Positions 519 through 28,765 are shown, numbered from the stretch's first letter. The stretch: DNA of 61,659 nucleotides from an uncultured Thermoplasmatales archaeon (GCA_964389625.1 CAYMEF010000002.1:1-61659); one strand, 5' to 3'. The notes: generated by a model from the letters alone, not told the origin. Translations and numbers: made by a program.

Positions 519-540
519 TCTTTTTTTCATTTCTCTCTTT
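519..540 (+). terminator. oligo-T tract downstream of rps2 (archaeal-type terminator candidate)
   Basis: 'tctttttttcatttctctcttt' lies directly after the stop codon. Confidence 0.35.
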
Positions 541-658
541 AGTCAAGCAGCTCCAGGGCCATGGACTCGAGGATGGCGTGAGTATTGAATCCCGGTGAGC
601 GTGGTCACTGTCAAAATTGTGAAAACATAATTTACCACTCTGCTATAGCTAAACAGCG

Positions 659-8646: not shown

Positions 8647-8942
8647 TATAAAGGATATTTTGTTGAATATTTAAGTTTGACCAAACTCGCATTTAAAAAC
8701 CCTAACTCGCTATTATTTAGGTAATATGTTAAGGTCCAGCAATTCCTTGAAAGTTGAGTAGGAGTTCCAAAATTGACTGAAAACTCGCGCACCTTTGCCT
8801 TATGTCTTAATTACGAATAATTAGGATGAAATCTCTGTTTCTGGAGAATCAGTCTAATACTTGGTGGAAATTGATTTTAATTAGACCTAATTCAGACTCA
8901 TTTGATATAAATGTTTTAATACCCTCTGGCATTGAGTGTTGA
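8647..8942. promoter_or_regulatory. AT-rich divergent promoter region between the 1508-aa and 3492-aa surface genes
   Basis: 'gatataaatg' at 8904-8913 lies ~30 nt upstream of the TTG start at 8943. 'aatatttaag' at 8666-8675 (reverse complement 'cttaaatatt') lies ~20-29 nt upstream of the minus-strand ATG at 8646. Both fit archaeal TATA spacing with short or no leader. Confidence 0.45.
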
Positions 8943-11900
8943 TTGAATAATAAAAAGGTTGCCAGGGGGATGGCATTGAGTGTAGCACTAGCAATAGTGC
9001 TCTTGATGCTTTCTTCGTCATTTTCCGGTGCTTTATATCCATCAAACCCAACTAATCCTGCGCAGCCCCAGGGGAGTCACGTCTACCTGGTCACTTCGAC
9101 AATAGGAAACCAAAATTATAGCTATTATGAAGAGGTTCAAAACGGGAAGGTTGTGAAAACCTGGCCGTCACCTGCCGCTCCTACCGTTCTCAATAACTCG
9201 GGTTCAAGTCCTTCTCAGATGGCGAATTCTTCGCCTTCAATAGAACCTTCGAGTGAGAAAAACACTAGCCAAAGCCTAAGTTCTTTGTCGATTGCTAACA
9301 AAACAGAGCTGAATGGACCTAGGTCTTTTGATGGAGACAAAGGTGGAGGTAGCGGAAATACATTCAACATTACTCAGACATATTCCCTTACGTCTATCAC
9401 ATTGTCCCCTACCTCTTCAAATCTTTACGTCGGGCAAACGTTGAATCTCGTTGGTACTTGGGCCGGAGGACTATCTCCTTATAACTATATCTGGCAGGTC
9501 TCTCGGACTTCATCCGACCACTGGCTCTTCACTTCTTACAACAACTCTTCTAATAAATATTCTGCAAACTTAAATTTCACTCCCGACCATCCCGGAACGT
9601 ACTTGATAAACTTAACGGTTAACGGTACGGGCAAAGGAAATGGGCTATATGCATATTCTGTCATCTCCGTTCAACCACAACCCTCCACGAATACCGATAA
9701 CAACCAGTTTAGTTTGGACAATGTTACCTTGAACCCTACCACCTCGGTGATGTATTCCGGTAGTCCAATCGATTTCGTAGGGAAATGGAGGGGTAGTTCA
9801 AGTGCATACAACTACGCATGGGTTATTACCACTGATCCGACACAATGGAAATCCTACTATGAAGGAGAAACCAACCAAATAGATAATTTCAATACGACAA
9901 CTGGGACTTCAACTGGCTTCAGTTTCAATCCAGTATACGGTTCGTTTGGTGTTTTTTACCTCTACCTATATGTGACTCCATCCAATGGGAAATTGGCCGG
10001 ACCTGGTAATCAACAGGATTCATTGGTTGCTTTCACGCAGATCATTCTACTCCCCGGTACGCCCGGAGTGACTTCTGTTACCATCTCGCCCACTTCGATT
10101 AATTACAACAATGACTCTGGACTCCTAACGTTCAAGGGAAACTGGACCGGTGGGGCTCCACCCTATTCTTATGCTTGGTTTGTGACCTATCGCGATACGA
10201 TAAAAACCCCATACATCCTTCAGTTTAGCTCCTACAACTATACCAATAAGGCTTCCGCAACTTTCACGTATGAGCCCACGAATAGCGGCCAGTACTTTGT
10301 TTATCTCTTCGTCAACAGCGCAACTTCCCCAGCTTACGTAATGGCAGTTTCCCAGATAAATTCTAAGGAAAATCCTCAACCCACCGTACAGCAGATTACG
10401 ATCACCCCAACCACAGTGGACGCAAGCATCGGAGAGTCGGTGACTTTCAATGCTAATTGGACAGGCGGCATTTCCCCGTATACCTATTTGTGGTATGTCT
10501 CTTCTTACTTCCCTCACTGGCAGAAGGGGGCTCACAACTTCAATACGGTAAATACAACGATAACTCCCAATGCTCAGTTTACATATATTCCAGATAGTTA
10601 CGGTATTTTTTACGTGTATTTGTTTGTAAACAATCACGTAAGTCAGAATTCGCAGCCCGGAAGCAACGATGAAGATGAAGGTCTGGCCCTGATTGCCACA
10701 GCCGAATTGAGCGTCCTTCATCCATCCTTACCTCTGACTTCTTCGGCAATTTCGCTTTCTCCCGCCAGCACGACAGTTGGAAATCCCGTGACCGCTACGG
10801 TCGAGTCCGGATATGGCATAGCTCCGTTCAGTTATTCCTGGGCGGTAACAACTTCTGGCCAACCCGCTACCGGAGATTATACAGCTACGGGTGATCAAAT
10901 CACCTTTTCCAGCCCAGGAACGTTTGAAGTTACAGTTACTGTAACAGACTCCAATGGACAAACCGCCTCCCTGACACAAACAATTACTGTGATAGGCCCA
11001 CTGACAGTATCGGTTGCAATATCGGGAAGTAGAACTATAGACAGCGGTCAGTCTGCCACCCTTCTAGCAACATCTATCACAGGGGGTACGTCACCATACA
11101 TTGGTCAGTGGCTGGAGTCGGCTCCCTCGTCCTCAAACTTCATAAACCTAGGTAATCAGTTTTCCGTCACAAGCAGCGATCTCTCAGCGGCAACAATTTC
11201 TAGCGGGATCCTGACTATTACGGGAACGTGGTTGTTCGAACTCAAGATCACTGACACCTCGTATACAGTTGCATATTCTAGTCCGATCTCCATTACAGTT
11301 AACCCACAACTAACCGTTGCACTGTCTGCTTCCAGTACTGGAATCGACTCGGGTGGTTCTGTCACTTTCACGAATTCAACGACCGGCGGGACGCAGCCAT
11401 ACACGTTCGGTTATACGGTCACCCCGGCCACAGGCTGGACTCAATCGAGCAATCCGGGAAACACTTTTACATTTACGGCCGCTGGCACATACAAGGTAAC
11501 GCTTACGGTTACCGATTTTGCGGGTTCCATAGTTTCCTCTTCTACAGTAACCATTACTGTTACATCGCTGCCCACGATCTCGGTTCAACCGCAATCTTAC
11601 TCAATAGACCCAGAACAGGTTTTCAGCCCGCTTACTTCCACTGTTGAATATGGTAGTGGCACCTATACCTGGCAATGGTACTCTGGCTCTCCAGGGAGCG
11701 GTTCAGCCGTTCCTCAAGCTTCTGGAAGCGGTACTTCTGCAACATTTACTCCAACACAGGGTGGTTTATACTATGTTATCTTTACAGACTCGTCAAACCA
11801 GATTGCGACATCCAACGCGGCCGTAGTGAAAGAAAATCAGAACCCGTCCGTTGTCGTTACACCATCTTCGGCTACGATTGTGACGTCACAGCAGTTGCCG

Positions 11901-17900: not shown

Positions 17901-19421
17901 CCACAACTCATCGTAGGTGCAGTTAATTCAACATATGATTTCGTTACCACACCTGCGACTACTCCCGGGGTCTATCTTTTTAACGCCACAGTCACTGACG
18001 TCAATACTGACCCAGCTGTAGTCAAATCCAACATAATCAGCGTCACTGTACGTTCCACCGTTGTGTATGGGCTTACATTCTCTGAATCTGGTCTTCCCAG
18101 CGGTGCCGTCTGGTATGTTAATCTTACTGCAGGAAAGTCCTATTCTTCTTCAAATTCCAGTATATCACTGTTAGAACCAAACGGGACTTATTCCTACACC
18201 GTTTCAGTGGAAAACAAAACGTTCAAGCTGTCTCAGGCAACAAGTTCTTTCACGGTTACAATCAACGGAACAGCAGTTAGGAAGACGTTCGTGTTCCTTC
18301 CTGTCGTTTACTCCGTCACGTTTCACGAGTATGGACTCATAACTGGAACGGAATGGTTTGTTAATCTAACTGATGGGCAGTCTTACTCTTCTACTCTTTC
18401 CATAATATCTTTCTCTGAAACAAATGGAACCTACACATATACGATTGCGACGGTGAACAAGCAATATAGGCCGACGCAATTTTCCTCCGAGTTTATTGTC
18501 GATGGTAGCTCACTATCGGAACAACCAATCCAGTTCTCACTGCTGAACTATACTGTAACATTTGATGAATCGGGACTTCCAGGCGGGGCAAAATGGTTCG
18601 TGAACCTGTCAAACGGTCAATCATATTCATCTTCAGGTAACGACCTGTCCATCTCTGAACCAAACGGCAGTTACTCTTACACCATAGCCACCCCAAACAA
18701 GATATATTACTCTACTGGGGGGACGCTTGGAGTGAATGGAGCTTCGATCACCGAATACGTCACGTTCTCTCTATATCTCTATAACATCTCATTTACGGAG
18801 ACCGGCCTCTCATCAGGTACCGTTTGGAACATCACCCTCAAAGAAATGAACGGGTTGGTAGCACATTCATCCACTGGACCGATTTACTTTAATGCTGTAA
18901 ACGGCACTTATAATTTCACCATTGGTGGAATACCTGGGTATAGAACTCAGAGCTACAACGTTACTGTAGTTGTTAGAGGTGGAGATATCAAGAATATTGT
19001 TACCTGGACTCCGGTCACGTATCCTGTGACAATAACAGAGAGTGGCCTGGCCCCTGGGTCTAGTTGGTCTGTGGCTCTCACGACTACTTCTTCTACGGGC
19101 CTGGAAAACGTCACTATCCTTAACACAACTTCTGATTCCATCACATTCAACGTTACGAATGGATCGTACTCATACGTTGTCATCCTCCCTAAGGGGTATA
19201 CCGGTTCACCAACAAAGGCAACAATCTCTGTGGTTGGTAGCGGGGTAATCGCTCAGCTAAAGGTTAAGGCTCTACCAAACTACTTACTCATTTGGACAAT
19301 AATAGCTATGATCGCAGTAATGGTAGTGGTTATTGTTATTTATTATATTGGCGAGAAGAAGAGCTTGTTCAAAAGGGATGGTAGGGCTGTAAGTATACGT
19401 CGGGTGAAACAGAAGAAGTGA
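8943..19421 (+). CDS. giant surface protein (3492 aa): signal/TM, S/N-rich linker, ~30 Ig/PKD-like repeats, 5 'VTFxESGLP' modules, C-terminal TM anchor and basic tail
   Basis: Uninterrupted 10.5-kb ORF. TTG start at 8943, or ATG at 8970. The recurrent signature 'GG(T/S)xP(Y/F)xYxW' appears in about 30 repeats. Classical PKD-like ends such as 'TVTDSNGQTASLTQTITV' are present. C-terminal 'LLIWTIIAMIAVMVVVIVIYYIG' is followed by 'EKKSLFKRDGRAVSIRRVKQKK'. Confidence 0.9.
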   Translation: MNNKKVARGMALSVALAIVLLMLSSSFSGALYPSNPTNPAQPQGSHVYLVTSTIGNQNYSYYEEVQNGKVVKTWPSPAAPTVLNNSGSSPSQMANSSPSIEPSSEKNTSQSLSSLSIANKTELNGPRSFDGDKGGGSGNTFNITQTYSLTSITLSPTSSNLYVGQTLNLVGTWAGGLSPYNYIWQVSRTSSDHWLFTSYNNSSNKYSANLNFTPDHPGTYLINLTVNGTGKGNGLYAYSVISVQPQPSTNTDNNQFSLDNVTLNPTTSVMYSGSPIDFVGKWRGSSSAYNYAWVITTDPTQWKSYYEGETNQIDNFNTTTGTSTGFSFNPVYGSFGVFYLYLYVTPSNGKLAGPGNQQDSLVAFTQIILLPGTPGVTSVTISPTSINYNNDSGLLTFKGNWTGGAPPYSYAWFVTYRDTIKTPYILQFSSYNYTNKASATFTYEPTNSGQYFVYLFVNSATSPAYVMAVSQINSKENPQPTVQQITITPTTVDASIGESVTFNANWTGGISPYTYLWYVSSYFPHWQKGAHNFNTVNTTITPNAQFTYIPDSYGIFYVYLFVNNHVSQNSQPGSNDEDEGLALIATAELSVLHPSLPLTSSAISLSPASTTVGNPVTATVESGYGIAPFSYSWAVTTSGQPATGDYTATGDQITFSSPGTFEVTVTVTDSNGQTASLTQTITVIGPLTVSVAISGSRTIDSGQSATLLATSITGGTSPYIGQWLESAPSSSNFINLGNQFSVTSSDLSAATISSGILTITGTWLFELKITDTSYTVAYSSPISITVNPQLTVALSASSTGIDSGGSVTFTNSTTGGTQPYTFGYTVTPATGWTQSSNPGNTFTFTAAGTYKVTLTVTDFAGSIVSSSTVTITVTSLPTISVQPQSYSIDPEQVFSPLTSTVEYGSGTYTWQWYSGSPGSGSAVPQASGSGTSATFTPTQGGLYYVIFTDSSNQIATSNAAVVKENQNPSVVVTPSSATIVTSQQLPLSSAVSGGSGSFSYSWTIGGSGTVVGTASGYSFSESTSGTYKVWLNVTDTGTTPQFVITAVSVSITVMTAPTVKVSPPSATIDASQSIVLTVSVNGGSGTYVYAWSIGGSPTSVGSTQSYQFSESTAKTYKIWLNVTDEGTNLPYVITTTVSIVVDASPSIDVEPNSAIIDSGQSVTLTSTVIGGTGQFSWQWYDTSGAISGASGSGTTASHSFSTADSDIYVIFTDTGTSSGATPTSSSTSSPYVSVTVDPALSIVDQPVATIIDSGQSLTLSSTVTGGTGSYSWSLYTSSNALIASGTGAVASKSFSPTSTASYYFEFTDTGVTSSATPAASIQSIIVQVTVNPALVPGITPSSATLPAGQSQQFVSTTTGGSGKYTYSWTVGGSSSVLSTTSTFTFSESVPASYVIWMNVTDTGTTVPYTLSAKATVLVNTATLSVSFAFNTPASGSGSLDAGQSLGISVTPIISGGTGPYSYQWFLNGTANVNKLGASSSATSGTAIVYAFTPPGKGTYTFYLQISSSDGLVSMSGPITISVYAKPSISQQPSPSTIDSGQTVQLTSTVIGGTPLFSWTLYSSSGTAVASGSGKTETYSFNPQSNGSYYFVFTDTGVASGSSPTPSAKSSAVSVTVYPDPTVTVLPATIGSGTAATLTATAAGGSKTGYSFKWYSDPGLTHLVYSGDPFNTPVLASTTTYYVTVTDSTGFVSSPASVVVTVVGSLTSSSLTISPTTTDVGFLVTGSVSPGSGVSPYSYSWVITLYPSGSASGDYTPSSNHVTFTKAGVYSATLTVKDSSGETASITDTITVNALPTISISPSTITVDAGSSVTFTYTSSGGTSPYTYGWGYSVASGITQTGNQFTFANTGNFTIKLFFNDSVGGSGYATATVSVNTQPVIVISTLNVTVRAASSIDSGTSTSIEITSISGTGPYVAVLKEEPPGEGSYSAVATTAQFSSTPEYISTGILTTIGQYHFLVTVTEVSNSGIFGSSQPIVVTVVNAPSSSALTISPTTTDIGLPITVTVANGYGVPPFVYAWTATLSGGGPATGDYSFTNNQITFTAAGTYSVTATVEDADGISVSSTAMVMVNAQLALTLTAVTPTTIDKGQTVTFSYSTTGGMTPYSVSYIVSSIGGGIKFGAYSISGNIITFSLVGQYEVSATVTDALGGTATSSSPITVNVNALPTITLTASETTIDSGNSVTFTNNTMGGTQPYTYIWSFPSSTGITRSVNTFTFANTGNFTITLTIVDAVGVVASASVLIRVNSSPIIVLQPANSSSLLASSNEQTSVLSEHSFQPQKKTLTGGNDPKITLDQDTPWSVYVQAGTGTPPFTFNWAIKYESNNTTLSNTHYNLTSSNSTYVDNVVNFLVQGTFYVVLTVVDKYDSTSTEYLTIVVDAPLLVVSTTVTATPSSFDLGNSTMIAATPTISGGTQPYFYQWYLNGVSSGNKISGGSGTALSGTQITLPETPATAGSYTYYLIIHDSAYSPATNTTKVTVTVNNLLTTGSIEISPTSTVIDGLINATIKSGYGTSPFNYTWTITPIGGSPIIQYGHQIGLSQAGNYTVSLKVRDVNGNFAYNNTTVRIYSSSLVLVTINSPTSTQTIDAGQTQSVTGSFSGGSGTYEYAWIVQTSTTAVTPSTWNTSAVSPQSHTFTFNSAGTFYVFLYVKDTIVGDTQNAYREVKVNNTLAQSAITISPTSTDVDSPVTASVSSGYGTAPFSYSWSVSLYPSGGSAAGDYNSSGNQLTFSKSGNYTVKVTVSDSYTSATSSSYTIDVSVVVSLRASIATYPTAGVTAIDINHPQEFQATVVGGSGSYTYSWGLSGTSGTLGTSSTYTLNVSTPGLYIVWLNVTQGTYKTSASPLTIVVNPLPKASIANGGTLQADVGEPISGSVVGGTPPYTYSWSVSLYPSRNSASGDYTVSGTTITFNAKGNYSLEFIVRDYDGSTSAVTVTIGVNAALSGSLSLINPLSSVIDRGNSSLLTVSITGGSGSFSYQWYEQAPGTSFPQLIVGAVNSTYDFVTTPATTPGVYLFNATVTDVNTDPAVVKSNIISVTVRSTVVYGLTFSESGLPSGAVWYVNLTAGKSYSSSNSSISLLEPNGTYSYTVSVENKTFKLSQATSSFTVTINGTAVRKTFVFLPVVYSVTFHEYGLITGTEWFVNLTDGQSYSSTLSIISFSETNGTYTYTIATVNKQYRPTQFSSEFIVDGSSLSEQPIQFSLLNYTVTFDESGLPGGAKWFVNLSNGQSYSSSGNDLSISEPNGSYSYTIATPNKIYYSTGGTLGVNGASITEYVTFSLYLYNISFTETGLSSGTVWNITLKEMNGLVAHSSTGPIYFNAVNGTYNFTIGGIPGYRTQSYNVTVVVRGGDIKNIVTWTPVTYPVTITESGLAPGSSWSVALTTTSSTGLENVTILNTTSDSITFNVTNGSYSYVVILPKGYTGSPTKATISVVGSGVIAQLKVKALPNYLLIWTIIAMIAVMVVVIVIYYIGEKKSLFKRDGRAVSIRRVKQKK
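9380..18050 (+). repeat. tandem array of ~30 Ig/PKD-like domain-coding repeats (85-115 codons each, at least 4 interleaved subfamilies)
   Basis: Subfamilies seen by eye: (a) 'GYG(I/V/T)xPFxYxW...GDY...ITF..G.Y..T.TV.D'; (b) 'GGSGx(F/Y)xYxW(T/S)(I/V)GGS...FSES....Y.(I/V)W(L/M)NVTD(T/E)GT'; (c) 'IDSGQ(S/T)(V/L)xLTSTV(I/T)GGT..FSW.(W/L)Y...(V/F)FTDTG(T/V)'; (d) four longer N-terminal units. The repeats are diverged at DNA level. Confidence 0.8.
18058..19265 (+). repeat. five tandem ~80-85-codon 'VTFxExGLPxGxxWxVNLT...EPNGTYxYT' modules
   Basis: 'LTFSESGLPSGAVWYVNLT', 'VTFHEYGLITGTEWFVNLT', 'VTFDESGLPGGAKWFVNLS', 'ISFTETGLSSGTVWNITL', 'VTITESGLAPGSSWSVAL'. Confidence 0.8.
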
Positions 19422-19567: not shown

Positions 19568-22165
19568 TTGGTTGGTAATGTTATCATGAGAGTGGAACAT
19601 GGTCTGCTGATTGGACAGAAAATTGAGTTGATTGCGCTGCTGGTAGTAGCGCTGGTCTCAATGTCTGCTCTCTCCGGCGGATGCGTTTCATCTTTAATCT
19701 CCTCCCCTGCCATCGTTCCAGCAGATACTGGCGTCAATGTTGCCACTTTTGCAATCCATGATCTTACCATTTTTTCTGTTACTATATCCCCTGTTAATCC
19801 CATTATTGACATAAACCAGTCAGTAACTTTCACTGCAACGGATAGTCAGTCCCTCACTTACACCTACGTCTGGTTCCTGAACAGCAAGGAAGTTGGCTCC
19901 AATTCTTCTACCTATACTTTCACACCAACGTCCACTGGCAGCTATTCTGTATATGTGAATGCCACTTCACAAGGAATTTCAAGGAATTCTAATACAGCAA
20001 GTGCGACAGTGGACAGTACCCCTACGGTCAGCATTTCACCCACCACAAAGAAGATAACAGTTGGACAATCGGTAACTTTCCAATCCAATGTGACCGGAGG
20101 TACGGGGACGTTCAGCTACTTATGGTACCTCAACGGGACGAAGACTTCCGTTACGACATCAACTTATACATTAACCCCAGCTGGAAATGCAACATACTAC
20201 GTCTACTTAATGGTCAATGACACTGGAACAACTTATGGCACACCCACCATATCGGTAAAGTCTAACAACGCCCAGATTACAGCCGTGTTTGTGACTTATC
20301 CTGTGGAATTCTCCGAATCGGGACTCCCAGCTGGGACAAAATGGTACGTGAACCTTACGAATGGACAATCGCGTTCCGTAGTTGGTTCACTCATCCTGTT
20401 TTACGAACCAAACGGAACTTATACCTACACCATTTCCTCAGGAAATAAAGTGTACGCTCCCAGCCCTTCATATGGTACTTTCACAATTTATGGCGACACG
20501 GTATCCTTTACAATCACGTTCCAGCCAGTCACGTATCCAGTCTCTTTCAATGAGACAGGACTCCCCAACGGAACTGTCTGGTATGTAAACGTTTCTGGTC
20601 AACCGTCTCTGCCTTCAGCTCACTCAATAATCACTTCGTCACTTTCGAATGGTAGTTACACTTTTACCATATCTACGGTAAACAAGGAATACTATCCAAC
20701 ACCCTACTCGGGATCTATAAGAGTGAATGGGCACGCTGTGACAGTAAGCGTAGAATTCTCCATATTTACATATCCCGTGGAATTCACAGAAAATGGCCTG
20801 CCAGTGAACACCGAGTGGTTTCTTGCGGTGACGAGCAACACGTCGATCAGTCAATATAATTCATCAGGTTCATCCTTTTCCCAGACAATATCTTTGAGTT
20901 TACCCAACGGGACTTATAATTATTCCATTGTATCTGGGATTGATACATTTGGCCCGTTTCCAGCCAATGGCACCTTCCAAATATCTGGCAATCCCGTCTC
21001 AAAATCCGTTCAGTTCCTAAGATTATATACAGTCACATTTGTTGAAACTGGTCTGCCGATCTCTTCAAGTCCAAATCTCAAATGGTTCTTGAACATAACA
21101 GACCCCCAGTACTACAGCTCTAAGACTAGCACCATATCTTTCTGGGAACCCAATGGAACATATTCATACTCAGTTTCGACAAACGACAGATGGTATGTAC
21201 CTTTCAACTCTACTAGAACTGGCTCATTCACGGTGAATGGTTCTGCAATTACCCCGTTTCCTTCAAGCTCCCCAATAGTGTTCAATGAACTTTTCAACGT
21301 GACGTTCAAGGAGCAGAAGCTTCCCAATGGAAGCCGCTGGTTTGCAAACGTTACTAATGGAGGATCATACTTCTCCACGAACAGTACTATCACTTTTACA
21401 GCTATAAATGGCAGTTACTCATATGAGATCTCGACAGGAAACAAGCTGTACAGGCCATCTCCCTTTAGTGGGATCTTTAATCCAAATCAAACTTCCTTTC
21501 CCATCCTTGTACAATTCAATCTTGTAACCTATCCAGTAACGTTTTCCGAAAAGGGTCTTACGAACGGTACTTTCTGGTCAATAATAATAAACAACATCAC
21601 TCGAATATCTACGAATCAAAGCATTTTTTTCAAACTCAGCAACGGGAGTTACGAATACTCCATTCAGGCACTCTCCGGGTTCTCTACCAGCGAATATATT
21701 GGGAATATTACAGTCAACGGAAGCCCGATCATAGAACCTGTAACCTGGAATCTTGTCACGTACCCAATAAATGTAACTCAGTCGGGTATACCGGCAGGCA
21801 AGAGCTGGTCAGTGACCCTTCAGGGAGAGACATTCAACAAGGTCCCAATTTCGATCACCATAAACACGACAAAGACATTTGTTACGTTCTACGAACCCAA
21901 CGGGACATATAATTATACCATTAATGCTCCATTCGGTTACACTGGCAGTCATGTGGTTGGAAGGGTTGTAGTAAACGGCAAGCCAACCTCAACTGCTGCA
22001 ACACTAGTGCCGCCAAACTTCAAGCTAATCGGAATAATTGGCGTAGTCATAGTTGCAGTTCTTGCTGTCATCCTCTTTCTTATCAACAGGCACGAGAACA
22101 GGAGTTTCTTCGTGAGAGATGGAAGGTACGTTAAGAATGGAAAGTATCTCAAGTACAAGAAATAA
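19568..22165 (+). CDS. surface protein (865 aa): N-terminal signal with Cys-containing 'LSGGC' motif, 2 Ig/PKD-like repeats, 7 'VxFxExGLP' modules, C-terminal TM anchor and basic tail
   Basis: The likely true start is ATG 19586 (MRVEHGLL...), with 'cataaatataa' about 25 nt upstream. 'VEFSESGLPAGTKWYVNLT', 'VSFNETGLPNGTVWYVNVS' and similar modules. C-terminal 'LIGIIGVVIVAVLAVILFLI' is followed by 'NRHENRSFFVRDGRYVKNGKYLKYKK'. Confidence 0.85.
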   Translation: MVGNVIMRVEHGLLIGQKIELIALLVVALVSMSALSGGCVSSLISSPAIVPADTGVNVATFAIHDLTIFSVTISPVNPIIDINQSVTFTATDSQSLTYTYVWFLNSKEVGSNSSTYTFTPTSTGSYSVYVNATSQGISRNSNTASATVDSTPTVSISPTTKKITVGQSVTFQSNVTGGTGTFSYLWYLNGTKTSVTTSTYTLTPAGNATYYVYLMVNDTGTTYGTPTISVKSNNAQITAVFVTYPVEFSESGLPAGTKWYVNLTNGQSRSVVGSLILFYEPNGTYTYTISSGNKVYAPSPSYGTFTIYGDTVSFTITFQPVTYPVSFNETGLPNGTVWYVNVSGQPSLPSAHSIITSSLSNGSYTFTISTVNKEYYPTPYSGSIRVNGHAVTVSVEFSIFTYPVEFTENGLPVNTEWFLAVTSNTSISQYNSSGSSFSQTISLSLPNGTYNYSIVSGIDTFGPFPANGTFQISGNPVSKSVQFLRLYTVTFVETGLPISSSPNLKWFLNITDPQYYSSKTSTISFWEPNGTYSYSVSTNDRWYVPFNSTRTGSFTVNGSAITPFPSSSPIVFNELFNVTFKEQKLPNGSRWFANVTNGGSYFSTNSTITFTAINGSYSYEISTGNKLYRPSPFSGIFNPNQTSFPILVQFNLVTYPVTFSEKGLTNGTFWSIIINNITRISTNQSIFFKLSNGSYEYSIQALSGFSTSEYIGNITVNGSPIIEPVTWNLVTYPINVTQSGIPAGKSWSVTLQGETFNKVPISITINTTKTFVTFYEPNGTYNYTINAPFGYTGSHVVGRVVVNGKPTSTAATLVPPNFKLIGIIGVVIVAVLAVILFLINRHENRSFFVRDGRYVKNGKYLKYKK
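20287..22010 (+). repeat. seven tandem ~80-90-codon 'VxFxExGLP' modules
   Basis: Same module family as at 18058-19265 and in the minus-strand gene 4120-8646. Confidence 0.75.
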
Positions 22166-22205: not shown

Positions 22206-23279
22206 TTACTCTTGGACTTTCTTGAATATTGAACCCGTCTTTAAATCCTTTTCAGACTGAGAAGATACGATACCCTTTGAGGTGATCTTGTAAAAGAATG
22301 GGTATGGGCTGTATGCCCCGCCTCTCATTTTTATGATGGATGCCTTTCTAATACCGGCAGTGGGGTCCTCCATCTCGAGCTTTATTACACCTGACACGAA
22401 ATACTCTTCAATACCATACATGCTGACATCGCTCTTCATAACTGGGCTCGTAACAAGCATATATGTGTGCGGAATTGCAAGTGACATGAAGAACTGATTC
22501 ACGAAATCGTCGTTCTCAACTATCATGGGCGTGATGGGATCTATCGCAATGCGGGTTATATTAGACTCCACGGTTATTCTGTTTATCTCGCTTGAGAGCC
22601 TCGTTATGTACTTCGTCCTGTTCTTCAGATTCTCAAGAACGTCTTCCTTTAGTTCCCTAATCCTATCGGAGAGCTCTATCACTTCAATGGTTCCATCTTT
22701 GTAGTATTCTTCGAATCCAAAGTTGAATGTCTTCGCATTCGCGATGTACTCTGCTCCTCTCGTATCTGTAAGTATGATCGCACCCTTTTCCCCCAACCGA
22801 GCCCCTTGAACGAGGAATTGAGTACAGGTAGTTGTCTTTCCGACTCCCGTCTTACCGGATATCATGTACACATTTCCACGCTTCATCGCACCTCCGAGGG
22901 ATTCGTCAAGTTCCTTTACCCCGAAAACGTCCGATTTCGACTTTGTCTGCTGTCTCTGATCTATCGTGATTATATTGTACATGTGAGTCAGGTTAATTTC
23001 AGTGTCGTCAAGGTCCTTATTTACTACAAGCGCCTTTAGAGATATTCCACAGTCTCCTGCTACCGCATTGAATTTCATTATATCGCTGACAAGATCGTCT
23101 GAAATCCCGTGAAGAACAGCAACCTTTATGTTTTCGTCCCTTTTGGACGTAACGACCAGATCGAACTTGTGTACTGCCCCTGATTTACCAGTAATTTTGA
23201 CATTACTGCCCCACGTGAATTCGCTGTCTAACTCGAACTCTTCCGCTACTTTAGCAACATTAATGGAGTCCACCGTCAT
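22206..23279 (-). CDS. KaiC/RecA-superfamily ATPase with an additional ~105-aa N-terminal domain
   Basis: Walker A 'GKTGVGKTT', a Walker B-like 'GAIILTD', and the KaiC-like C-terminus 'IIKMRGGAY...FYKITSKGI'. The N-terminal 'GKSGAVHKFDLVVTSKRDENIKVAVLHG' is an extra domain. 'gatataaatg' (reverse complement of 23304-23313) lies 25 nt upstream of the ATG. Confidence 0.8.
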   Translation of the reverse strand: MTVDSINVAKVAEEFELDSEFTWGSNVKITGKSGAVHKFDLVVTSKRDENIKVAVLHGISDDLVSDIMKFNAVAGDCGISLKALVVNKDLDDTEINLTHMYNIITIDQRQQTKSKSDVFGVKELDESLGGAMKRGNVYMISGKTGVGKTTTCTQFLVQGARLGEKGAIILTDTRGAEYIANAKTFNFGFEEYYKDGTIEVIELSDRIRELKEDVLENLKNRTKYITRLSSEINRITVESNITRIAIDPITPMIVENDDFVNQFFMSLAIPHTYMLVTSPVMKSDVSMYGIEEYFVSGVIKLEMEDPTAGIRKASIIKMRGGAYSPYPFFYKITSKGIVSSQSEKDLKTGSIFKKVQE

Positions 23280-23446
23280 TACGGATTATGGAGGCCCAAG
23301 GCCCATTTATATCTTTCTCTAAAAGATTTATTCTGCGGTCAATGCAACTAACAATATCTCAAATATATTTTCTATTATATAAAAATATCAATGCTGGTAC
23401 GCTGTTAGTCCTAGGAACTACTAACCAATAATCCTAATTGTGGCGA

Positions 23447-24307
23447 CTAAGCACTGTTAGCGGCCTTGGATCGTTCACTACTTGAAGTAAAGTTTTCGAT
23501 GCTTTCCACTTTAAACGATGGCAGAGTTTCACTAGACTCGTAGAGTCTTAGAAGGAACGGTTTAAGTAGGAATGTAGGAAGATGGACCATACCCTTAACG
23601 GAGTGTAGATCGTGCAATTCTAGATATGAGGCCAAGGGTATGTGATCCTTATCAATGGCATTAAGAAGATGTAGGGTCGGCTCATTTTCCATGTCGATGA
23701 GAGCGACGGATTGTTTATCGTCCAGATCATATGCTAGGGCGCTGGCCGTGTTTCTATGGCTATTCTTCCACTCTACAATGTACCTTTTCTTGTTATTTTT
23801 CTTGAAGGCGAAGGTCACAACTGACAGCGGCATTCTCACGTTGATTTCATCCAAAATTTTGCTGATGCTTGCAGTGGGTTTCAGTTGAATTTCATCCACA
23901 TTTTGATCGAGTGATACTAAGAGCCGCAGCAGGTTGCCTGCTTCTTTCAACTGAGACGAATGGAATCTGAAGCTGGCGTGAATCCTTTTTCCTCTAGTGA
24001 ACAATTCCCCGTCAGCAAGTGTTGGAACCATCCCAACATTTTCGCTCACAGTCCTTACAACCGCATTGTCTATCTTTTCGGTTATTACCAAGATATCTCC
24101 CATCAGGACTGGATTCATAGTTTCCAGTAGTACTCTATTGTTTTCAGAAATACCGCTCAGGAAGAATGTAGCATAAATTTCATCTTTGTGGTTATAGAGA
24201 TTTATAGGCACCGGCGTATCCTTTACTATAGCAGAGAGAACAAAACTGTTAATTGGCGTTGAAAAGCTTAAGGTCATGTTCAAGCGCTTATCTGCGATGC
24301 TAAGCAT
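23447..24307 (-). CDS. uncharacterised protein, paralog 1 of a local three-member family (286 aa)
   Basis: It shares the N-terminus 'MLSIADKRLNM' and the central 'HASFRFHSSQL' block with ORFs 24406..25338 and 26175..27098. No TM segment or known motif. Confidence 0.6.
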   Translation of the reverse strand: MLSIADKRLNMTLSFSTPINSFVLSAIVKDTPVPINLYNHKDEIYATFFLSGISENNRVLLETMNPVLMGDILVITEKIDNAVVRTVSENVGMVPTLADGELFTRGKRIHASFRFHSSQLKEAGNLLRLLVSLDQNVDEIQLKPTASISKILDEINVRMPLSVVTFAFKKNNKKRYIVEWKNSHRNTASALAYDLDDKQSVALIDMENEPTLHLLNAIDKDHIPLASYLELHDLHSVKGMVHLPTFLLKPFLLRLYESSETLPSFKVESIENFTSSSERSKAANSA

Positions 24308-24405
24308 TTAAGGGTGAAACGCGTTGGTATTTATTAATTGTTCTTCGAGATACCGTATAACACAAAATCAGTTAAGTATTAATTTCAAAAGAAATTGACT
24401 TTGCG

Positions 24406-25338
24406 ATGCTTTTAAGGGAGATTGACAAAGAGCTCGATATGGAATGCAAGATAGTCTTTAACAAGGATGACAGAATTTTCAGCCTATCCAAGGCTTTAAA
24501 CCGAACGTTCCAGGCTTTTGTTGAGACCAAAAATGGCGAAAGGGTCCTGTCAGTTTACGTTCCAAAGGGGGCGGTAGAAGAAGCTGGTAATATGGCAAAA
24601 TTCTTGACCTCTGGCTCGGAGAACGAAAGATTCCTGATTTCCGACATTCCAATCGAAGACTCAATTTTCGAGTTTCTGATCGCTCTCGGCAAGATAGAAT
24701 CTACCTCCACTTTTGATGTCTTTATACAGAAAGGAAAAATGACAGTTCGATTCAGGTTTCACAAATCTGCGATCCCTAACATCTCTCAGGTTCTCGCTAA
24801 GAATGACATTCTGAAGCACCTCGTTAAAGAAATAAGCATACTTCCAACTGCCGGTTTCATAACTTATCTTGACATAAAGAACAAGGAGTTTTCCCTGCAC
24901 CTAATAGAATACTCGATGCCATTCTCAATAATAAAGAATGAACAGATCAAGTCACTCTTCAAAAATGGCGCAATAGCCGAAGTTGTTAACGTTTTTTCAG
25001 ATACCAGTAATCACAAATTGCTGATATATGGGGCGAAGGGGAGTAAGACGGACCTCAAGCCCATTTCCCCTGGTTCTGATATCTATGAGGTTCCTCTAGA
25101 AACACTAGAAGTCGAATCATTTAACGTACTGACCAACGTTTTCAATTCAAAGGGAATTAAGAGGTACAACATTTTTTACAAAAAAGTGGACGATACGTTC
25201 AGAATCTTGACTTTTCTGGAAAGATACGATGCCATGAAGCACATATCTGAATTGTTCATTTTCTATAATAGACTTAACCAGACAGTTGACTTGTCACTTT
25301 CAATGGGATATACGCCTGAAATGTTGGAATCGCTCTGA
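24406..25338 (+). CDS. uncharacterised protein, paralog 2 (310 aa)
   Basis: Collinear with 26175..27098 over the full length ('MLLREIDKELDMECKIVFNKDDRIFSLS' versus 'MQLKEVDKKLDMQGTIVFSKNDRIFQLS'; 'VRFRFHKS' versus 'VKFRFHHT'). Confidence 0.65.
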   Translation: MLLREIDKELDMECKIVFNKDDRIFSLSKALNRTFQAFVETKNGERVLSVYVPKGAVEEAGNMAKFLTSGSENERFLISDIPIEDSIFEFLIALGKIESTSTFDVFIQKGKMTVRFRFHKSAIPNISQVLAKNDILKHLVKEISILPTAGFITYLDIKNKEFSLHLIEYSMPFSIIKNEQIKSLFKNGAIAEVVNVFSDTSNHKLLIYGAKGSKTDLKPISPGSDIYEVPLETLEVESFNVLTNVFNSKGIKRYNIFYKKVDDTFRILTFLERYDAMKHISELFIFYNRLNQTVDLSLSMGYTPEMLESL

Positions 25339-25607
25339 TCCGCACACTCTAAACTCGACAGAAAAGGATAAGCCAATATACATTCACAGTTTTTATTTTC
25401 CGACGGAGGTAGGTAGAGTCAATTGTAGTATTCCCTTATTATATTTTTATTTTTTAATTAAAACGAGCATATTGCTTACATCATATTATCAGTTAAGATA
25501 CTTTCATTATTTGATATTCTAAAATTCAAAACTTGAAATTTGGCATATCGATATCCGAGTGAAGGATTTAACCTCAGATTCGCTAAGGATTGTGAGAGTT
25601 GTGCAAA

Positions 25608-26075
25608 ATGGAGAACTTTCTTGTTTCGTATGGTTCCGTAAGGGATTTGGAACTGCTTGTAGAGCATCGCCTTAACATGTGGAAAGACATCCACCCCGAC
25701 TTGGTTGATCAAATTGAATCTTCAAGAGAATTCACAAGTAGATGGATCTAGAGAAAGCTTCAAACAAACGAGCTCATCGCTTTCATAGTAAAAGGCAACG
25801 ATGGAGTCGTAATGGGATCTGGCTGCATTCTGATAAAGGAGGATCAGCCCAGAGCAAGTACGTTGAAACTATCGTTTCCATACATTCTGTCCATGTTTAC
25901 TGAACCCGAATATCGTGGGAAGGGGGTAGCCTCTGCAATAGTAAGAGAGGCCATTGGATGGAGCAGGAGAAACGGTTATGATAGAATCTCGTTGCATGCG
26001 TCAGATAAAGGGAGATCCCTCTATGAAAAGTTTGGGTTTCTTCAAACAAATGAGATGAGACTTAGGCTCGTCTAG
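25608..26075 (+). pseudogene. GNAT family N-acetyltransferase interrupted by one in-frame TAG (25749-25751)
   Basis: ATG 25608 and ORF 25812..26075 are in the same frame, separated only by the amber codon. The downstream part carries the GNAT acetyl-CoA motif 'YRGKGVASAIVREAIGWSRRNGY' and 'LYEKFGF'. Confidence 0.6.
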
Positions 26076-26174
26076 GTTTTTTTGGCCGGTCTTCAAATCT
26101 GGGGAATCTGTCTTATTGCGGGTCTACGATTTTTGAAGAGTAAAACGTTAATTTGGTAAAGAAATACTCATTGG

Positions 26175-27098
26175 ATGCAGCTCAAGGAAGTGGACAAGAA
26201 ACTGGACATGCAGGGTACCATTGTTTTCAGCAAGAATGACAGAATCTTTCAATTGAGTAGAATCAACAATCGCGTCTATCAATGTATCATTGAGAAAAAC
26301 GAAGAACAAAAGTCCCTCCTTGTCTTACTGGGAAAGGAAAAGTATAATTCTGGCACGGAGGAACTGAAGTTTTTTCAAACATCCACCGACAATGCAGGAA
26401 GAATTGTTGCCAGAGTTTCGCTAGAGGAAGCGATTTTTAAACTTCTCTTGGGACTCGTCGAAGTTAGCTCTGTATCTGGGTTGAGTCTTATGGTCTACAA
26501 TGGATCCCTTTTGGTCAAATTCCGTTTCCACCACACGTTTACCTCAGGCGTCTCTAGAATCCTTCAGCAGTGCGTAAGACTGGTGCACATTGTTAAAGAG
26601 ATCTTGATTGAGCCGACAGAGGGCATCATCGCCGAACTGGATAGGAGAAGCCAGGAAACACCCTTATCGGTACTGGCTGTCGATCTCCCTCTAACGCTGG
26701 TGAACAACGAACAGTCGATCTCGATACTCGCCAATGGAGGAATAGGCGAATTCGCTGGAATTGTCTCTCCAACACCCTCTTACAAGTTTCTTTATTACAG
26801 CCCTTCCGAAGTAGGCGACAGCTTGACCGTAGTGGACAGAGAGAATCACATATACGAGAGCCGTTCAAATGTAGAGATCCTGGGCCTTATAACGCAGCTG
26901 CTGCGTAATGCGCACATCAAACCACATCTGATAGCATTCCGAGCCAGCGGAAACTCGCTTAGGTCTTACTTGTTTGTTGAGAAGGAAGACGCAGTCAGGG
27001 TCATTTCTGGGGGATTCAAGGTTGTATCTCGTGCTTCCGTCGATGTTGGGCTCGCCCTTGCTGTGGACTACTCGCCAGATGTCTGGGGCTTGTTATGA
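26175..27098 (+). CDS. uncharacterised protein, paralog 3 (307 aa)
   Basis: See paralog 2. Full-length collinear similarity. Confidence 0.65.
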   Translation: MQLKEVDKKLDMQGTIVFSKNDRIFQLSRINNRVYQCIIEKNEEQKSLLVLLGKEKYNSGTEELKFFQTSTDNAGRIVARVSLEEAIFKLLLGLVEVSSVSGLSLMVYNGSLLVKFRFHHTFTSGVSRILQQCVRLVHIVKEILIEPTEGIIAELDRRSQETPLSVLAVDLPLTLVNNEQSISILANGGIGEFAGIVSPTPSYKFLYYSPSEVGDSLTVVDRENHIYESRSNVEILGLITQLLRNAHIKPHLIAFRASGNSLRSYLFVEKEDAVRVISGGFKVVSRASVDVGLALAVDYSPDVWGLL

Positions 27099-28068: not shown

Positions 28069-28467
28069 ATGAGCGCCAAAGCGGAATTCGAACAAATGAT
28101 GGAGAGATCCGATAGATTTCTGAAAACAGCAGAAAGTACACTGGAAAAAGGTTTTCTTGATATAAGCTCATTCAATGCAAATCAAGCCCTAGAATTATTC
28201 CTAAAAGCACGTGTGTTAAGACTGGCAGGAGACTACCCTCACACACACGACATAAAAGAACTTTTGATAACACTTGGAAAGGTTTGTGAACCCAAGTACG
28301 CTGGTACTGTGGAAAATATTCTTAGAGAGAAGAGCCTGGAGCTTAAGGCAGTCCAAGATACTTACATAACGTCTAGATACTTCTTCACCAGCTCGTCGGA
28401 GAACGAAGTCAATCGGATGATCGGATTCATTAAGGAGCTTGAGAGGAGTCTGGAAGATGTTCGTTGA
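28069..28467 (+). CDS. HEPN domain protein (partner of the downstream nucleotidyltransferase)
   Basis: 132 aa, all-helical. 'ALELFLKARVL...PHTHDIKELL' and '...TYITSRYF' are typical of archaeal HEPN (PF05168-like). It overlaps the next ORF. Confidence 0.7.
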   Translation: MSAKAEFEQMMERSDRFLKTAESTLEKGFLDISSFNANQALELFLKARVLRLAGDYPHTHDIKELLITLGKVCEPKYAGTVENILREKSLELKAVQDTYITSRYFFTSSSENEVNRMIGFIKELERSLEDVR

Positions 28468-28765
28468 GATGGCGAAGAAGAGAAGACACGCATTTGATCA
28501 CTTGAATTCATACCTAGATCTAATCAAAAGGATAGCCAAGACCGAAGACAAGAACTCTAGGGTCTTCTTATTTGGATCGGTTGAGAAAGGAGACTACAAT
28601 ATGGCCAGCGACATAGACATTCTCATCGTGACGGAGAAAGATAGGTACATACTTCTAACAAAGCTTGAAAACGAAGGGATAGAATTTCCATTTGAGCTGC
28701 ACGTTAGAAACTCCAGGGAAGCAGAAGCATACTTCCAACACATTCCCGAACTGAAGGAACTCTAG
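28439..28765 (+). CDS. minimal nucleotidyltransferase (MNT) domain protein
   Basis: 'VFLFGSVEKGDYNMASDIDILIV' matches the GS...DxD Pol-beta-type NTase motif. The real start is probably ATG 28457 (overlapping the HEPN stop) or ATG 28469. Confidence 0.8.
   Translation: MRGVWKMFVEMAKKRRHAFDHLNSYLDLIKRIAKTEDKNSRVFLFGSVEKGDYNMASDIDILIVTEKDRYILLTKLENEGIEFPFELHVRNSREAEAYFQHIPELKEL

Follow-up and report, generated by a model that had tools for sequence, protein, structure and literature searches.

A role as hubs of signal transduction has been proposed for archaeal KaiC-like ATPases (Makarova, Galperin and Koonin 2017, mBio 8:e01959-17, as cited in PMC5847659). Single-domain members such as PH0284/PH0186 and ArlH contain one RecA/KaiC-type domain with Walker A and B motifs. 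In the cyanobacterial KaiABC system, a tandem CI+CII protein has its ATPase state read by small partners. In archaea, KaiC-like ATPases reportedly occur in variable neighbourhoods, accompanied by small partner-like proteins. Processive GT2 synthase operons (bacterial cellulose, alginate and PNAG-type) combine a synthase, a modifying enzyme and a regulator; to our knowledge, no KaiC-like regulator has been described for such synthases. The Ta1207 family is represented by a crystal structure from Thermoplasma acidophilum (PDB 5M86) and has no known function.

Here we analysed a window of 61,659 nucleotides from an uncultured Thermoplasmatales archaeon (GCA_964389625.1 CAYMEF010000002.1:1-61659), in which a KaiC-like ATPase, named KaiC(N) here, lies beside Ta1207-family genes. 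Our preferred, if tentative, reading is that the two may constitute a Thermoplasmatales-specific cytoplasmic ATPase-plus-partner regulatory module that is tied to the biogenesis of cell-envelope glycans or of the cell surface. Their linkage provides a first functional lead for the Ta1207 family. The locus contains the following features:

19568-22165, plus strand: 865-aa tail-anchored surface protein, the last of the surface genes, converging on KaiC(N)
22206-23279, minus strand: KaiC(N), 357 aa, ATPase of the KaiC/RecA type with one ATPase domain and an N-terminal domain specific to the subtype
22266-22922, minus strand: KaiC-type ATPase core of KaiC(N), residues 120-338
22944-23279, minus strand: N-terminal domain of KaiC(N), residues ~1-112, motif GxSGxxHKFD...FN...D.GI..K
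23447-24307, minus strand: TaA, A-type Ta1207-family protein, 286 aa
24308-24405: divergent intergenic region between TaA and TaB, 98 bp, with two conserved AT-rich, TATA-like elements
24406-25338, plus strand: TaB, B-type Ta1207-family protein, 310 aa
26175-27098, plus strand: TaC, additional B-type protein of the Ta1207 family, lineage-specific, 307 aa

Re-calling the ORFs on the window returned the ATPase and the three paralogs exactly where the earlier note had placed them. The 40-bp gap to the convergent surface gene, which stops at 22165, is likewise exact. TaA lies upstream of KaiC(N) in the same direction, separated by a 167-bp spacer, and forms a head-to-head pair with TaB. The TATA-like elements between them (24328-24340 for TaA, 24373-24385 for TaB) are putative promoters. 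In L002-L007, the relatives that were aligned, the element (A/G)ATAAGT(A/T)TTAATT is conserved at ~25-35 nt upstream of TaB; L025 shows it in mirrored form. TaA orthologues occupy the same position in relatives at 45-54% identity, as do orthologues of the 865-aa surface protein at 57-58%. The latter protein has PKD/Ig-like matches and a TM segment at the C-terminal end, with RSFFVRDGR as the motif in its tail. A HEPN/MNT pair is located 1 kb from the module.

Residues 120-338 of KaiC(N) match PF06745 (KaiC) with E 7.7e-36 and 124 bits against a cutoff of 26.6, and PDB KaiC sequences match with E values down to 2.9e-24. The AF2 model (pLDDT 82.7) matches KaiC CI in Foldseek (E ~1e-12). Walker A (GKTGVGKT, G142-T149) and Walker B (IDPIT, D247) are invariant in 28 orthologues, and a YGIEE motif is shared with KaiC CI. 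Orthologues within Thermoplasmatales span 36-87% identity. As in other archaeal KaiC-like ATPases, the single ATPase domain comes with an extra lineage-specific N-terminal domain, a variable neighbourhood and small partner-like proteins. Unlike in those proteins, the catalytic Glu pair is replaced by D-T: E77/E78 of KaiC CI align to D172-T173 ('LTDT'), which renders the ATPase competence of KaiC(N) uncertain. D172 is nearly invariant among orthologues and might substitute for the catalytic Glu.

KaiC(N) does not reach the threshold of any curated NCBIfam model for KaiC or ArlH; its highest score is to TIGR03880, with 69.8 bits against 249. It is not ArlH/FlaH, scoring 29.5 against 215 and 34.7 against 194 bits in NCBIfam, and the window contains no archaellum genes. 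Nor is it a circadian KaiC (TIGR02655, 36.6 against 546; PRK09302, 59.5 against 408). Its core is homologous to KaiC, and small partners that read the ATPase state would be an idea common to both systems; however, it has one ATPase domain in place of the CI+CII tandem and lacks the CII phosphosite region. No KaiA or KaiB homologues were found among the window proteins scanned, and the Ta1207 proteins are unrelated to either. In the searchable literature text, neither the Ta1207 family nor a GT2 synthase was found as a partner of KaiC-like ATPases.

The ~115 N-terminal residues of KaiC(N) have no Pfam match; they are conserved in 27 orthologues, with F70, N71, K82 and I103 invariant. The fold search with KaiC(N) was dominated by the ATPase domain. 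For the N-terminal domain, AF2 predicts an alpha-beta-beta-beta-alpha-beta-alpha-beta topology, which fits the PD-(D/E)XK fold, while the acidic residues of that fold are not strictly conserved. Weak profile matches were obtained to the endonuclease R.HinP1I (E 0.6), where the invariant K82 aligns to the QxK lysine, and to DUF1829 (6 of 14 members, best E 0.0022). On this basis, the domain possibly has a restriction-endonuclease-like fold, an assignment we regard as tentative.

The three paralogs, which the earlier note could not match to any family, all belong to PF19020 (Ta1207 family). In Pfam hmmscan searches with the whole proteins, TaA scored 100 bits (E 1.5e-28; model positions 12-274), TaB 134.3 bits (E 5.4e-39; 1-273) and TaC 87.3 bits (E 1.2e-24; 3-265), all above the gathering cutoff of 26.3 bits and covering nearly all of the 277-position model. 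Each of them is predicted to be soluble, and none has a TM-like segment. Their mutual homology is real, and all three match the same Pfam model near full length, but it is uneven in strength. TaB and TaC are 31% identical over the full length (E 8e-56), whereas the similarity of TaA to either of them is confined to the region of the FRFH core (E 2e-5 to 3e-5).

The family is small, with 126 clusters among 1.84 billion representatives, almost all of ~300 aa. None of the 126 clusters contains an extra domain, and none is fused to KaiC or any signalling domain. Members with a named source are from Thermoplasma, Ferroplasma, Thermoplasmatota MAGs and a mine-drainage metagenome; every one belongs to Thermoplasmatales or to mine drainage. 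T. acidophilum Ta1207 (5M86) and the window proteins are alike in being soluble, single-domain and ~300 aa long, and they share a taxonomic range. The His that is near-invariant in the FRFH motif is missing from Ta1207 itself. The window proteins are also far from it; the nearest family representative is ~21% identical to Ta1207, over the N-terminal ~157 residues. Since Ta1207 has no known function, family membership does not provide a mechanism.

Structure prediction for the paralogs, proposed in the earlier note and carried out here on TaB, led back to this described family. The AF2 model of TaB (pLDDT 81.8) consists of repeated beta-alpha-beta-beta-alpha-beta units, and its top PDB match in Foldseek is 5M86 (E 1.4e-12, prob 1.0), with a global TM-score of only 0.34, which could reflect either a different packing of the domains or flaws in the model. 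A search with the family profile likewise picks up the sequence of 5M86 (E 1.7e-9). Structural matches ranking below 5M86 are weak: designed ferredoxin folds (E 4e-3, prob 0.92-0.97) and tandem ACT regulators (E 0.03-0.06, prob 0.5-0.75). The internal repeat signal is weak as well (hhalign E 0.0035). The secondary-structure pattern fits ACT/ferredoxin-like domains, and Ta1207-family proteins may be built of repeated ferredoxin/ACT-like alpha/beta units. The PDB 5M86 entry contains 10 identical chains, and we take the assembly to be a pentameric ring.

In a neighbour-joining tree, the Ta1207 family splits into an A and a B clade, with TaA placed within the former. Each pair in the window clade, L015, L019, L021 and L022 combines one A-type with one B-type protein, and the pairs of L009, L010 and L018 likewise consist of two different types. 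What the earlier note described as a local triplication thus does comprise three homologous copies, but the tree resolves them into an ancient A/B pair and one extra B-type copy, TaC.

The neighbourhood of KaiC(N) and Ta1207 genes is recurrent and not a product of chance. Across the acid-loving Thermoplasmatales, four different gene orders place a Ta1207 gene or pair no more than 3 kb from this KaiC subtype, at KaiC(N) identities down to 36% and with differing flanking genes. The window clade (L001-L008, L023-L026) has the order surface-KaiC-TaA-TaB, with identities of 74-87% for KaiC(N) and 45-57% for TaA and TaB. L022/L030 have surface-like-KaiC-GT2-unknown-TaA-TaB, L021 has GT-KaiC-GT2-unknown-TaB-TaA, and L010-L012 have Ta-KaiC-GT2-Ta. 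In Ferroplasma L018, a Ta pair is located ~6 kb from GT1-KaiC-GT2. The KaiCs of the loci outside the window clade align to the window KaiC(N), including its N-terminal domain, at 36-48% identity. The outer flanks of L010, L021 and L018 have nothing in common with the window, and those of L022 share only the upstream rpS2-Memo region, which means that only the KaiC/Ta1207 cluster has persisted. The link is not obligate, however. There is no KaiC within 10 kb of the Ta1207 genes in L009, L019 and T. acidophilum L017, and no Ta1207 gene within 8 kb of KaiC(N) in L020 or within 7 kb downstream of it in L028.

Outside the window clade, KaiC(N) has a recurrent third partner, formed by a membrane GT2 synthase and a beta-helix-like protein. 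The GT2 protein has 5-6 TM-like segments and cellulose-synthase-like Pfam matches (Cellulose_synt, Glyco_trans_2_3); its gene overlaps that of KaiC by 4 bp in L021 and L022. The gene that follows is weakly pectate-lyase/beta-helix-like. Such an arrangement is suggestive of an operon for a polysaccharide or glycan synthase, and it resembles processive GT2 synthase operons in its combination of synthase, modifying enzyme and regulator. The resemblance is one of layout alone, and unlike those operons, the window has no synthase: neither the 61.7-kb window nor the loci L001-L008 of its clade yielded a GT2 or beta-helix homologue. Because it is spread across lineages, the GT2-containing layout is probably the ancestral state.

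In the model that we tentatively favour, KaiC(N) would presumably be a ring-forming slow ATPase or autokinase, like other KaiC/RecA-type proteins. The second component would be the soluble pair of A-type and B-type Ta1207 proteins. This A/B assembly would read or set the nucleotide or phosphorylation state of KaiC(N) and act as an adaptor or ligand sensor, and the output would be control of cell-envelope biogenesis. The model includes a physical interaction between KaiC(N) and the Ta1207 proteins, a direction of signalling and an envelope target, all of which we infer. A cell-surface theme is plausible; a gene for a surface repeat protein adjoins KaiC in both the window clade and L022. A pentameric Ta1207 ring, if our assumption about 5M86 is right, would not match a KaiC ring of six subunits. 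Further points against the model are that the linkage is not obligate, that the family has no fusions to KaiC or to a signalling domain, that Ta1207 itself is without the FRFH His and that D-T stands in place of the catalytic Glu pair. In most lineages the genes of the module lie next to those for the membrane GT2 synthase, translationally coupled to KaiC(N), and the beta-helix-like protein. In this clade the locus is without the GT2 and beta-helix genes, and KaiC(N) instead abuts the genes for giant tail-anchored surface proteins.

The same neighbourhood could also reflect inherited synteny without functional coupling, with the Ta1207 proteins acting independently, for example as soluble ligand-binding or scaffold rings, and having remained neighbours of KaiC(N) by chance ever since the ancestor of Thermoplasmatales. 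We consider this somewhat unlikely. The Ta1207 pairs and singletons without a KaiC nearby and the KaiC(N) genes of L020 and L028 fit such a scenario. So does the rpS2-Memo region common to the window and L022, by which part of the recurrence is explained by common descent; several arrangements may stem from one ancestral cluster, so that the lineages are not fully independent. Rates are also very unequal (45-57% identity for Ta1207 against 78-85% for KaiC(N)); judged by the identities among relatives, Ta1207 proteins evolve ~3x faster, which is unusual for an obligate partner of KaiC(N). Against this, proximity has outlasted at least four different gene orders and orientations and divergence of KaiC to 36% identity, while other flanking genes were replaced. 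A Ta1207 gene within 3 kb of KaiC(N) was observed in 4 of 7 sampled lineages, compared with ~1-2% expected for a randomly placed KaiC(N) under the rough assumption of ~4 Ta1207 genes and one KaiC(N) per ~1.7 Mb genome.

The earlier note had also raised two more specific roles. A dedicated system for assembly, quality control or regulation of the giant tail-anchored surface proteins, with KaiC(N) and/or Ta1207 rings acting on their conserved cytoplasmic tails, we judge to be improbable; the recurrent third partner is the GT2 and beta-helix-like pair and not these proteins. KaiC(N) abuts surface genes throughout the window clade and in L022/L030, the L022 copy being homologous and preceding KaiC(N). 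Beyond these lineages, which share the rpS2-Memo region, surface-gene adjacency is seen only at two KaiC relatives that lack the N-terminal domain and adjoin thermopsin-like repeat proteins (L031, L032). The KaiC(N) genes of L010, L018, L021 and L028 have no surface gene alongside and are coupled to GT2. The tails of the surface proteins, [KR]S[LF]F[KV]R[DE]GR, recall the ends of KaiC(N) orthologues, S[IL][FL][KR][KR][VI], and across the window's 24.8k ORF residues the loose motif has only 4 occurrences; the likeness is, however, a post hoc one of five residues, and KaiC(N) keeps the motif even where no surface genes are nearby. Even less probable, in our view, is a defence-like or conflict system in which the ATPase works with fast-evolving effector or sensor proteins of variable copy number, a reading for which searches of PADLOC-DB, PHROGs and viral contigs gave no support. 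The Ta1207 proteins do evolve fast and vary in copy number, a T. acidophilum paralogue lies beside an N6 DNA methylase, and the HEPN/MNT pair is only 1 kb off. KaiC(N) has weak PADLOC matches to mad8 (E 4e-6, confined to the P-loop region) and, through the possibly restriction-endonuclease-like N-terminal domain, to PDC-M24B (E 0.0034). The putative nuclease catalytic residues of that domain are not conserved, however, and TaA, TaB and TaC have no PADLOC match. TaB and TaC have no match in PHROGs either, where TaA has one marginal match (E 0.0045), and no relatives were found on viral contigs. In the window clade the locus is stable and syntenic amid housekeeping genes, and no sign of an integrase or mobile element was seen there. 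The partner that recurs consistently is a glycan synthase instead of a nuclease or some other effector.

TaC is a third, B-type Ta1207 copy that was gained by this genome alone. Six relatives that span the site (L001/L005, L003, L004, L006, L007 and L025) have no second B-type match there, and no TaC relative at 50% identity or more was found among the 1.84 billion representatives. The gene is flanked by a GNAT gene on one side and a GTP cyclohydrolase II gene on the other. It has the sequence TTAATTT-N3-AAGAAAT in common with TaB, at an equal distance from the ATG.

The locus consists of four open reading frames, all found in the ORF list at the positions that the earlier note had assigned to them:

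22206-23279, minus strand: KaiC(N), a KaiC-like ATPase with a subtype-specific N-terminal domain, 357 aa
23447-24307, minus strand: TaA, Ta1207-family protein, 286 aa
24406-25338, plus strand: TaB, Ta1207-family protein, 310 aa
26175-27098, plus strand: TaC, Ta1207-family protein, 307 aa

As described, KaiC(N) is convergent with the last gene of the surface island, an 865-aa gene that ends at 22165, leaving a gap of exactly 40 bp. TaA, TaB and TaC contain no transmembrane-like segment and are predicted to be soluble, in line with the earlier note, which could match none of them to a family. Instead, all three fit the Pfam 'Ta1207 family' (PF19020; cutoff 26.3 bits) over nearly the entire 277-position model, with E values of 1.5e-28 (TaA), 5.4e-39 (TaB) and 1.2e-24 (TaC), which establishes their membership. 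NCBIfam holds no model matching any of them. Their mutual homology is plain for TaB and TaC, which align from end to end with 31% identity (E 8e-56), but TaA is far more distant, and its BLAST match to the other two is confined to the region around a common FRFH motif (E 2e-5 to 3e-5).

The family is small. Searched exhaustively with HMMER, 1.84 billion representative proteins yielded only 126 clusters, nearly all of about 300 aa and none with an added domain. Named sources are Thermoplasma acidophilum, Ferroplasma, Thermoplasmatota MAGs and a mine-drainage metagenome. R117, H119 and E192 (TaB numbering) are kept in at least 90% of 70 family members. The AF2 model of TaB (mean pLDDT 81.8, pTM 0.60) is built from repeated beta-alpha-beta-beta-alpha-beta units, and an internal beta-beta-alpha repeat gives a weak hhalign signal (E 0.0035). 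A structure search with this model, a check suggested in the earlier note, returned a sole strong PDB match, 5M86, 'Crystal structure of the Thermoplasma acidophilum protein Ta1207' (E 1.4e-12, probability 1.0, TM 0.34; the agreement is local, not global). Weaker matches were ferredoxin-fold designs and tandem ACT regulators. A profile of the 70 members also detects the 5M86 sequence (E 1.7e-9), and single-sequence phmmer with TaB against the PDB gave spurious armadillo-repeat designs only; the link is visible only by fold search or family profile. The 5M86 entry contains 10 identical chains, and the Ta1207 structure paper reportedly describes a pentameric ring.

The supposed local triplication resolves into an A-type/B-type pair and one additional B-type copy, as judged from neighbourhoods and from a midpoint-rooted NJ tree of 32 very divergent family members from the fetched loci. 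TaA falls into the A-type clade, TaB and TaC into the B-type clade. Each adjacent pair of the window clade and of the related loci L015, L019, L021 and L022 combines one A with one B, and the pairs of L009, L010 and L018 each contain two differing types. TaA and TaB are arranged head to head across 91-98 bp containing two conserved AT-rich, TATA-like elements, an arrangement kept in the aligned relatives L002-L007 and mirrored in L025. This conservation suggests that the elements may act as promoters.

In relatives that span the site of TaC (L001/L005, L003, L004, L006, L007, L025), a GNAT gene is followed directly by GTP cyclohydrolase II (GCH2), or no second B-type match is found. No relative of TaC at 50% identity or above exists among the 1.84 billion representatives. 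Since TaC branches below the window-clade B proteins in the NJ tree, it could be a duplicate, either old and lost elsewhere or recent and fast-evolving, or else an acquisition. A search for repeats around TaC as a mark of insertion yielded short chance matches only. Despite the 31% protein identity, the TaB and TaC genes share an upstream element, TTAATTT-N3-AAGAAAT (24379-24395 and 26149-26165), which ends 9-10 nt before the ATG and whose AAGAAAT part was not seen upstream of TaB in relatives; co-regulation or promoter conversion may lie behind it. Between TaB and TaC, directly upstream of the lineage-specific TaC, the gene for the GNAT acetyltransferase (25608-26075, plus strand) is interrupted by one in-frame TAG (25749-25751) at a position where its 155-aa orthologue in L001 has Arg. 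The remainder aligns in frame with this orthologue at 62% identity, and a frameshift was rejected; the gene may be a pseudogene, contain a sequencing error or be read through.

The ATPase was correctly recognised as KaiC-type: residues 120-338 match Pfam KaiC (PF06745, E 7.7e-36), and its membership of the KaiC/RecA superfamily is established. Its scores fall well short of the cutoffs of all curated KaiC and ArlH models, and membership of circadian KaiC or ArlH was rejected. A further 55 relatives reach E 1e-20 or better, and those with annotation all come from Thermoplasmatales or Thermoplasmatota. Among 27 aligned relatives (36-85% identical), nearly all have the N-domain, and Walker A and Walker B are invariant. 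Throughout the subfamily Asp-Thr (D172-T173 in 'LTDT', codons 22761-22766) stands where KaiC CI has its catalytic Glu-Glu, which makes ATPase competence uncertain. The invariant EE of YGIEE was considered as a mimic of the KaiC CII phosphosites and rejected, as its counterpart in the alignment is the CI motif YGVEE.

The N-terminal ~115 residues have no Pfam match. The domain (residues ~1-112) is marked by the motif GxSGxxHKFD...FN...D.GI..K and has a predicted alpha-beta-beta-beta-alpha-beta-alpha-beta topology. Its matches are weak (R.HinP1I endonuclease, E 0.6, and DUF1829), so a restriction-endonuclease-like fold is a possible but tentative assignment. A fold search with the full KaiC(N) model is dominated by KaiC chains. 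Some orthologues have a tandem double N-domain (e.g. P0204, 505 aa), and some close relatives have none (L031-L033).

Gene-neighbourhood analysis, likewise suggested beforehand, found KaiC(N) and Ta1207 genes close together in four gene orders.

Gene orders in related loci (Ta, Ta1207 gene; GT2, membrane glycan synthase)
Window clade (L001-L008, L023-L026): surface - KaiC(N) - TaA - TaB - GNAT - GCH2
L021: GT - KaiC(N) - GT2 - ~331-aa protein - TaB - TaA; KaiC 57% identical to the window protein
L022/L030: rpS2 - Memo - unknown - thermopsin-like surface protein - KaiC(N) - GT2 - ~349-aa protein - TaA - TaB; KaiC 46% identical
L010-L012: Ta - KaiC(N) - GT2 - Ta; KaiC 36% identical
Ferroplasma L018: Ta - Ta - about 6 kb - GT1 - KaiC(N) - GT2; KaiC 38% identical
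L027/L028: KaiC(N) - GT2 - ~357-aa protein, with the next 7 kb downstream free of Ta1207 genes; KaiC 59% identical
L020: KaiC(N) alone; 62% identical
L009, L019: pairs of Ta1207 genes without a KaiC gene within 10 kb
T. acidophilum L017: one Ta1207 paralogue, again without KaiC within 10 kb

A genome scan with a narrow Ta1207 alignment reached close relatives only. GT2 has 5-6 transmembrane-like segments and cellulose-synthase-like Pfam matches, and in L021 and L022 its gene has a 4-bp overlap with that of KaiC. The gene after GT2 encodes a conserved, soluble protein of ~331-357 aa (L021 4416-5411, L022 10703-11752, L028 4568-5641) with no significant Pfam match and a weak pectate-lyase/beta-helix match (E 0.054); its sequence is repeat-rich, as is typical of beta-helices. 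It was rejected as a fourth, divergent Ta1207 protein, given no hmmsearch match and an hhalign probability of 0.1. Both GT2 and this protein are missing from the entire window and from loci L001-L008 of the window clade. As KaiC(N), TaA and TaB still stand together where the locus lacks the synthase, we argue that these three form the core unit.

A Ta1207 gene lies at most 3 kb from KaiC(N) in four of seven sampled lineages, a count inflated by shared descent, where ~1-2% would be expected by chance under the rough assumption of ~4 Ta1207 genes and one KaiC(N) gene per ~1.7 Mb genome. The link is clearly not obligate. Inherited synteny without coupling would account for the arrangement, and we regard this as rather unlikely: the proximity has persisted through four gene orders and deep divergence while other neighbours were replaced, which favours functional linkage. 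The best available hint at an output is the connection to the envelope, with GT2 in most lineages and surface repeat proteins in the window, L022 and L031/L032. We therefore tentatively prefer, on genomic context, a model in which the cytoplasmic KaiC-like ATPase would work with an A/B Ta1207 assembly that may act as adaptor or sensor, the output being regulation of envelope biogenesis. That the system is specific for the giant surface proteins beside it in the window seems improbable to us. A defence-like role is very unlikely: the Ta1207 proteins have no PADLOC match, PADLOC system membership was rejected for the proteins of the locus, PHROGs gave nothing meaningful beyond one marginal match (TaA, E 0.0045), and viral contigs contained no relative.

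A bolder version of the preferred regulatory model, and a highly speculative one, would make KaiC(N) and an A/B Ta1207 ring a so far unrecognised archaeal post-translational switch or timer, functionally analogous to KaiC with KaiB/KaiA, that gates envelope production in the wall-less Thermoplasmatales. Here, the Ta1207 assembly would recognise the short basic motif S-[LI]-F-[KR]-[KR] at the C-terminus of KaiC(N) and in the cytoplasmic tails of the giant surface proteins, and the extra B-type copy would retune the switch.

Both the Ta1207 family and the KaiC-like ATPase class are already described. No mention of Ta1207 or PF19020 was found in the searchable literature, and no function is given by the family's name in Pfam, by how its members are annotated at source or by searchable text. 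Papers on Thermoplasmatales surfaces and evolution mention KaiC only in passing. Within the text searched, the association of Ta1207 with KaiC(N) and GT2 and the A/B pairing are undescribed; Makarova et al. 2017 might already list the neighbourhood. Through the conserved pairing, and through its ties to a single KaiC-like subtype and to a membrane glycan synthase, the family gains its first testable functional context. These findings also offer a concrete, lineage-restricted example of the proposed role of archaeal KaiC-like ATPases as signalling hubs whose partners vary (Makarova et al. 2017, as cited in PMC5847659). Thermoplasmatales are described as lacking a paracrystalline S-layer (PMC12448462), and the locus points to how S-layer-less archaea of this order might regulate a surface coat of glycan or protein. 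The claim, a modest one drawn from comparative genomics alone, would give an orphan structure a testable context.

Within the window clade, identities are 74-87% for KaiC(N), 45-57% for TaA/TaB, 57-58% for the surface protein and 77-89% for GCH2. In L001-L007, TaA and TaB diverge as fast as the surface protein and far faster than the flanking KaiC(N) (78-85%), GCH2 and SDR (75-82%). L022 covers the same part of the chromosome as the window, which starts with rpS2 and Memo; rpS2-Memo and a ~300-aa M24-like protein are syntenic between window 12-2421 and L022 2072-4340. Where the window has three giant surface genes (1508, 3492 and 865 aa), L022 has a single 953-aa thermopsin-like protein, so the surface island has expanded in the window lineage; the surface-like protein of L022 is 33% identical to the window's surface repeats. 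In L031 (7674-8462 with 8825-10456) and L032 (8426-9361 with 9914-10741), N-domain-less KaiC relatives, ~52% identical in the ATPase core, stand next to homologues of the thermopsin-like surface repeats.

The motif [KR]S[LF]F[KV]R[DE]GR lies in the cytoplasmic tails of the two adjacent surface proteins (22090-22165, 19340-19421) and is kept in their orthologues. It resembles the C-terminal S[IL][FL][KR][KR][VI] of KaiC(N) orthologues (window 22206-22235), a resemblance found post hoc; the loose motif occurs only 4 times in the 24.8k ORF residues of the window. Rfam gave no match in the window. Downstream, at 28069-28765 (plus strand), overlapping genes encode a toxin-antitoxin-like pair of a HEPN protein (132 aa) and a minimal nucleotidyltransferase (108 aa), the latter with PADLOC PDC-S09 matches.
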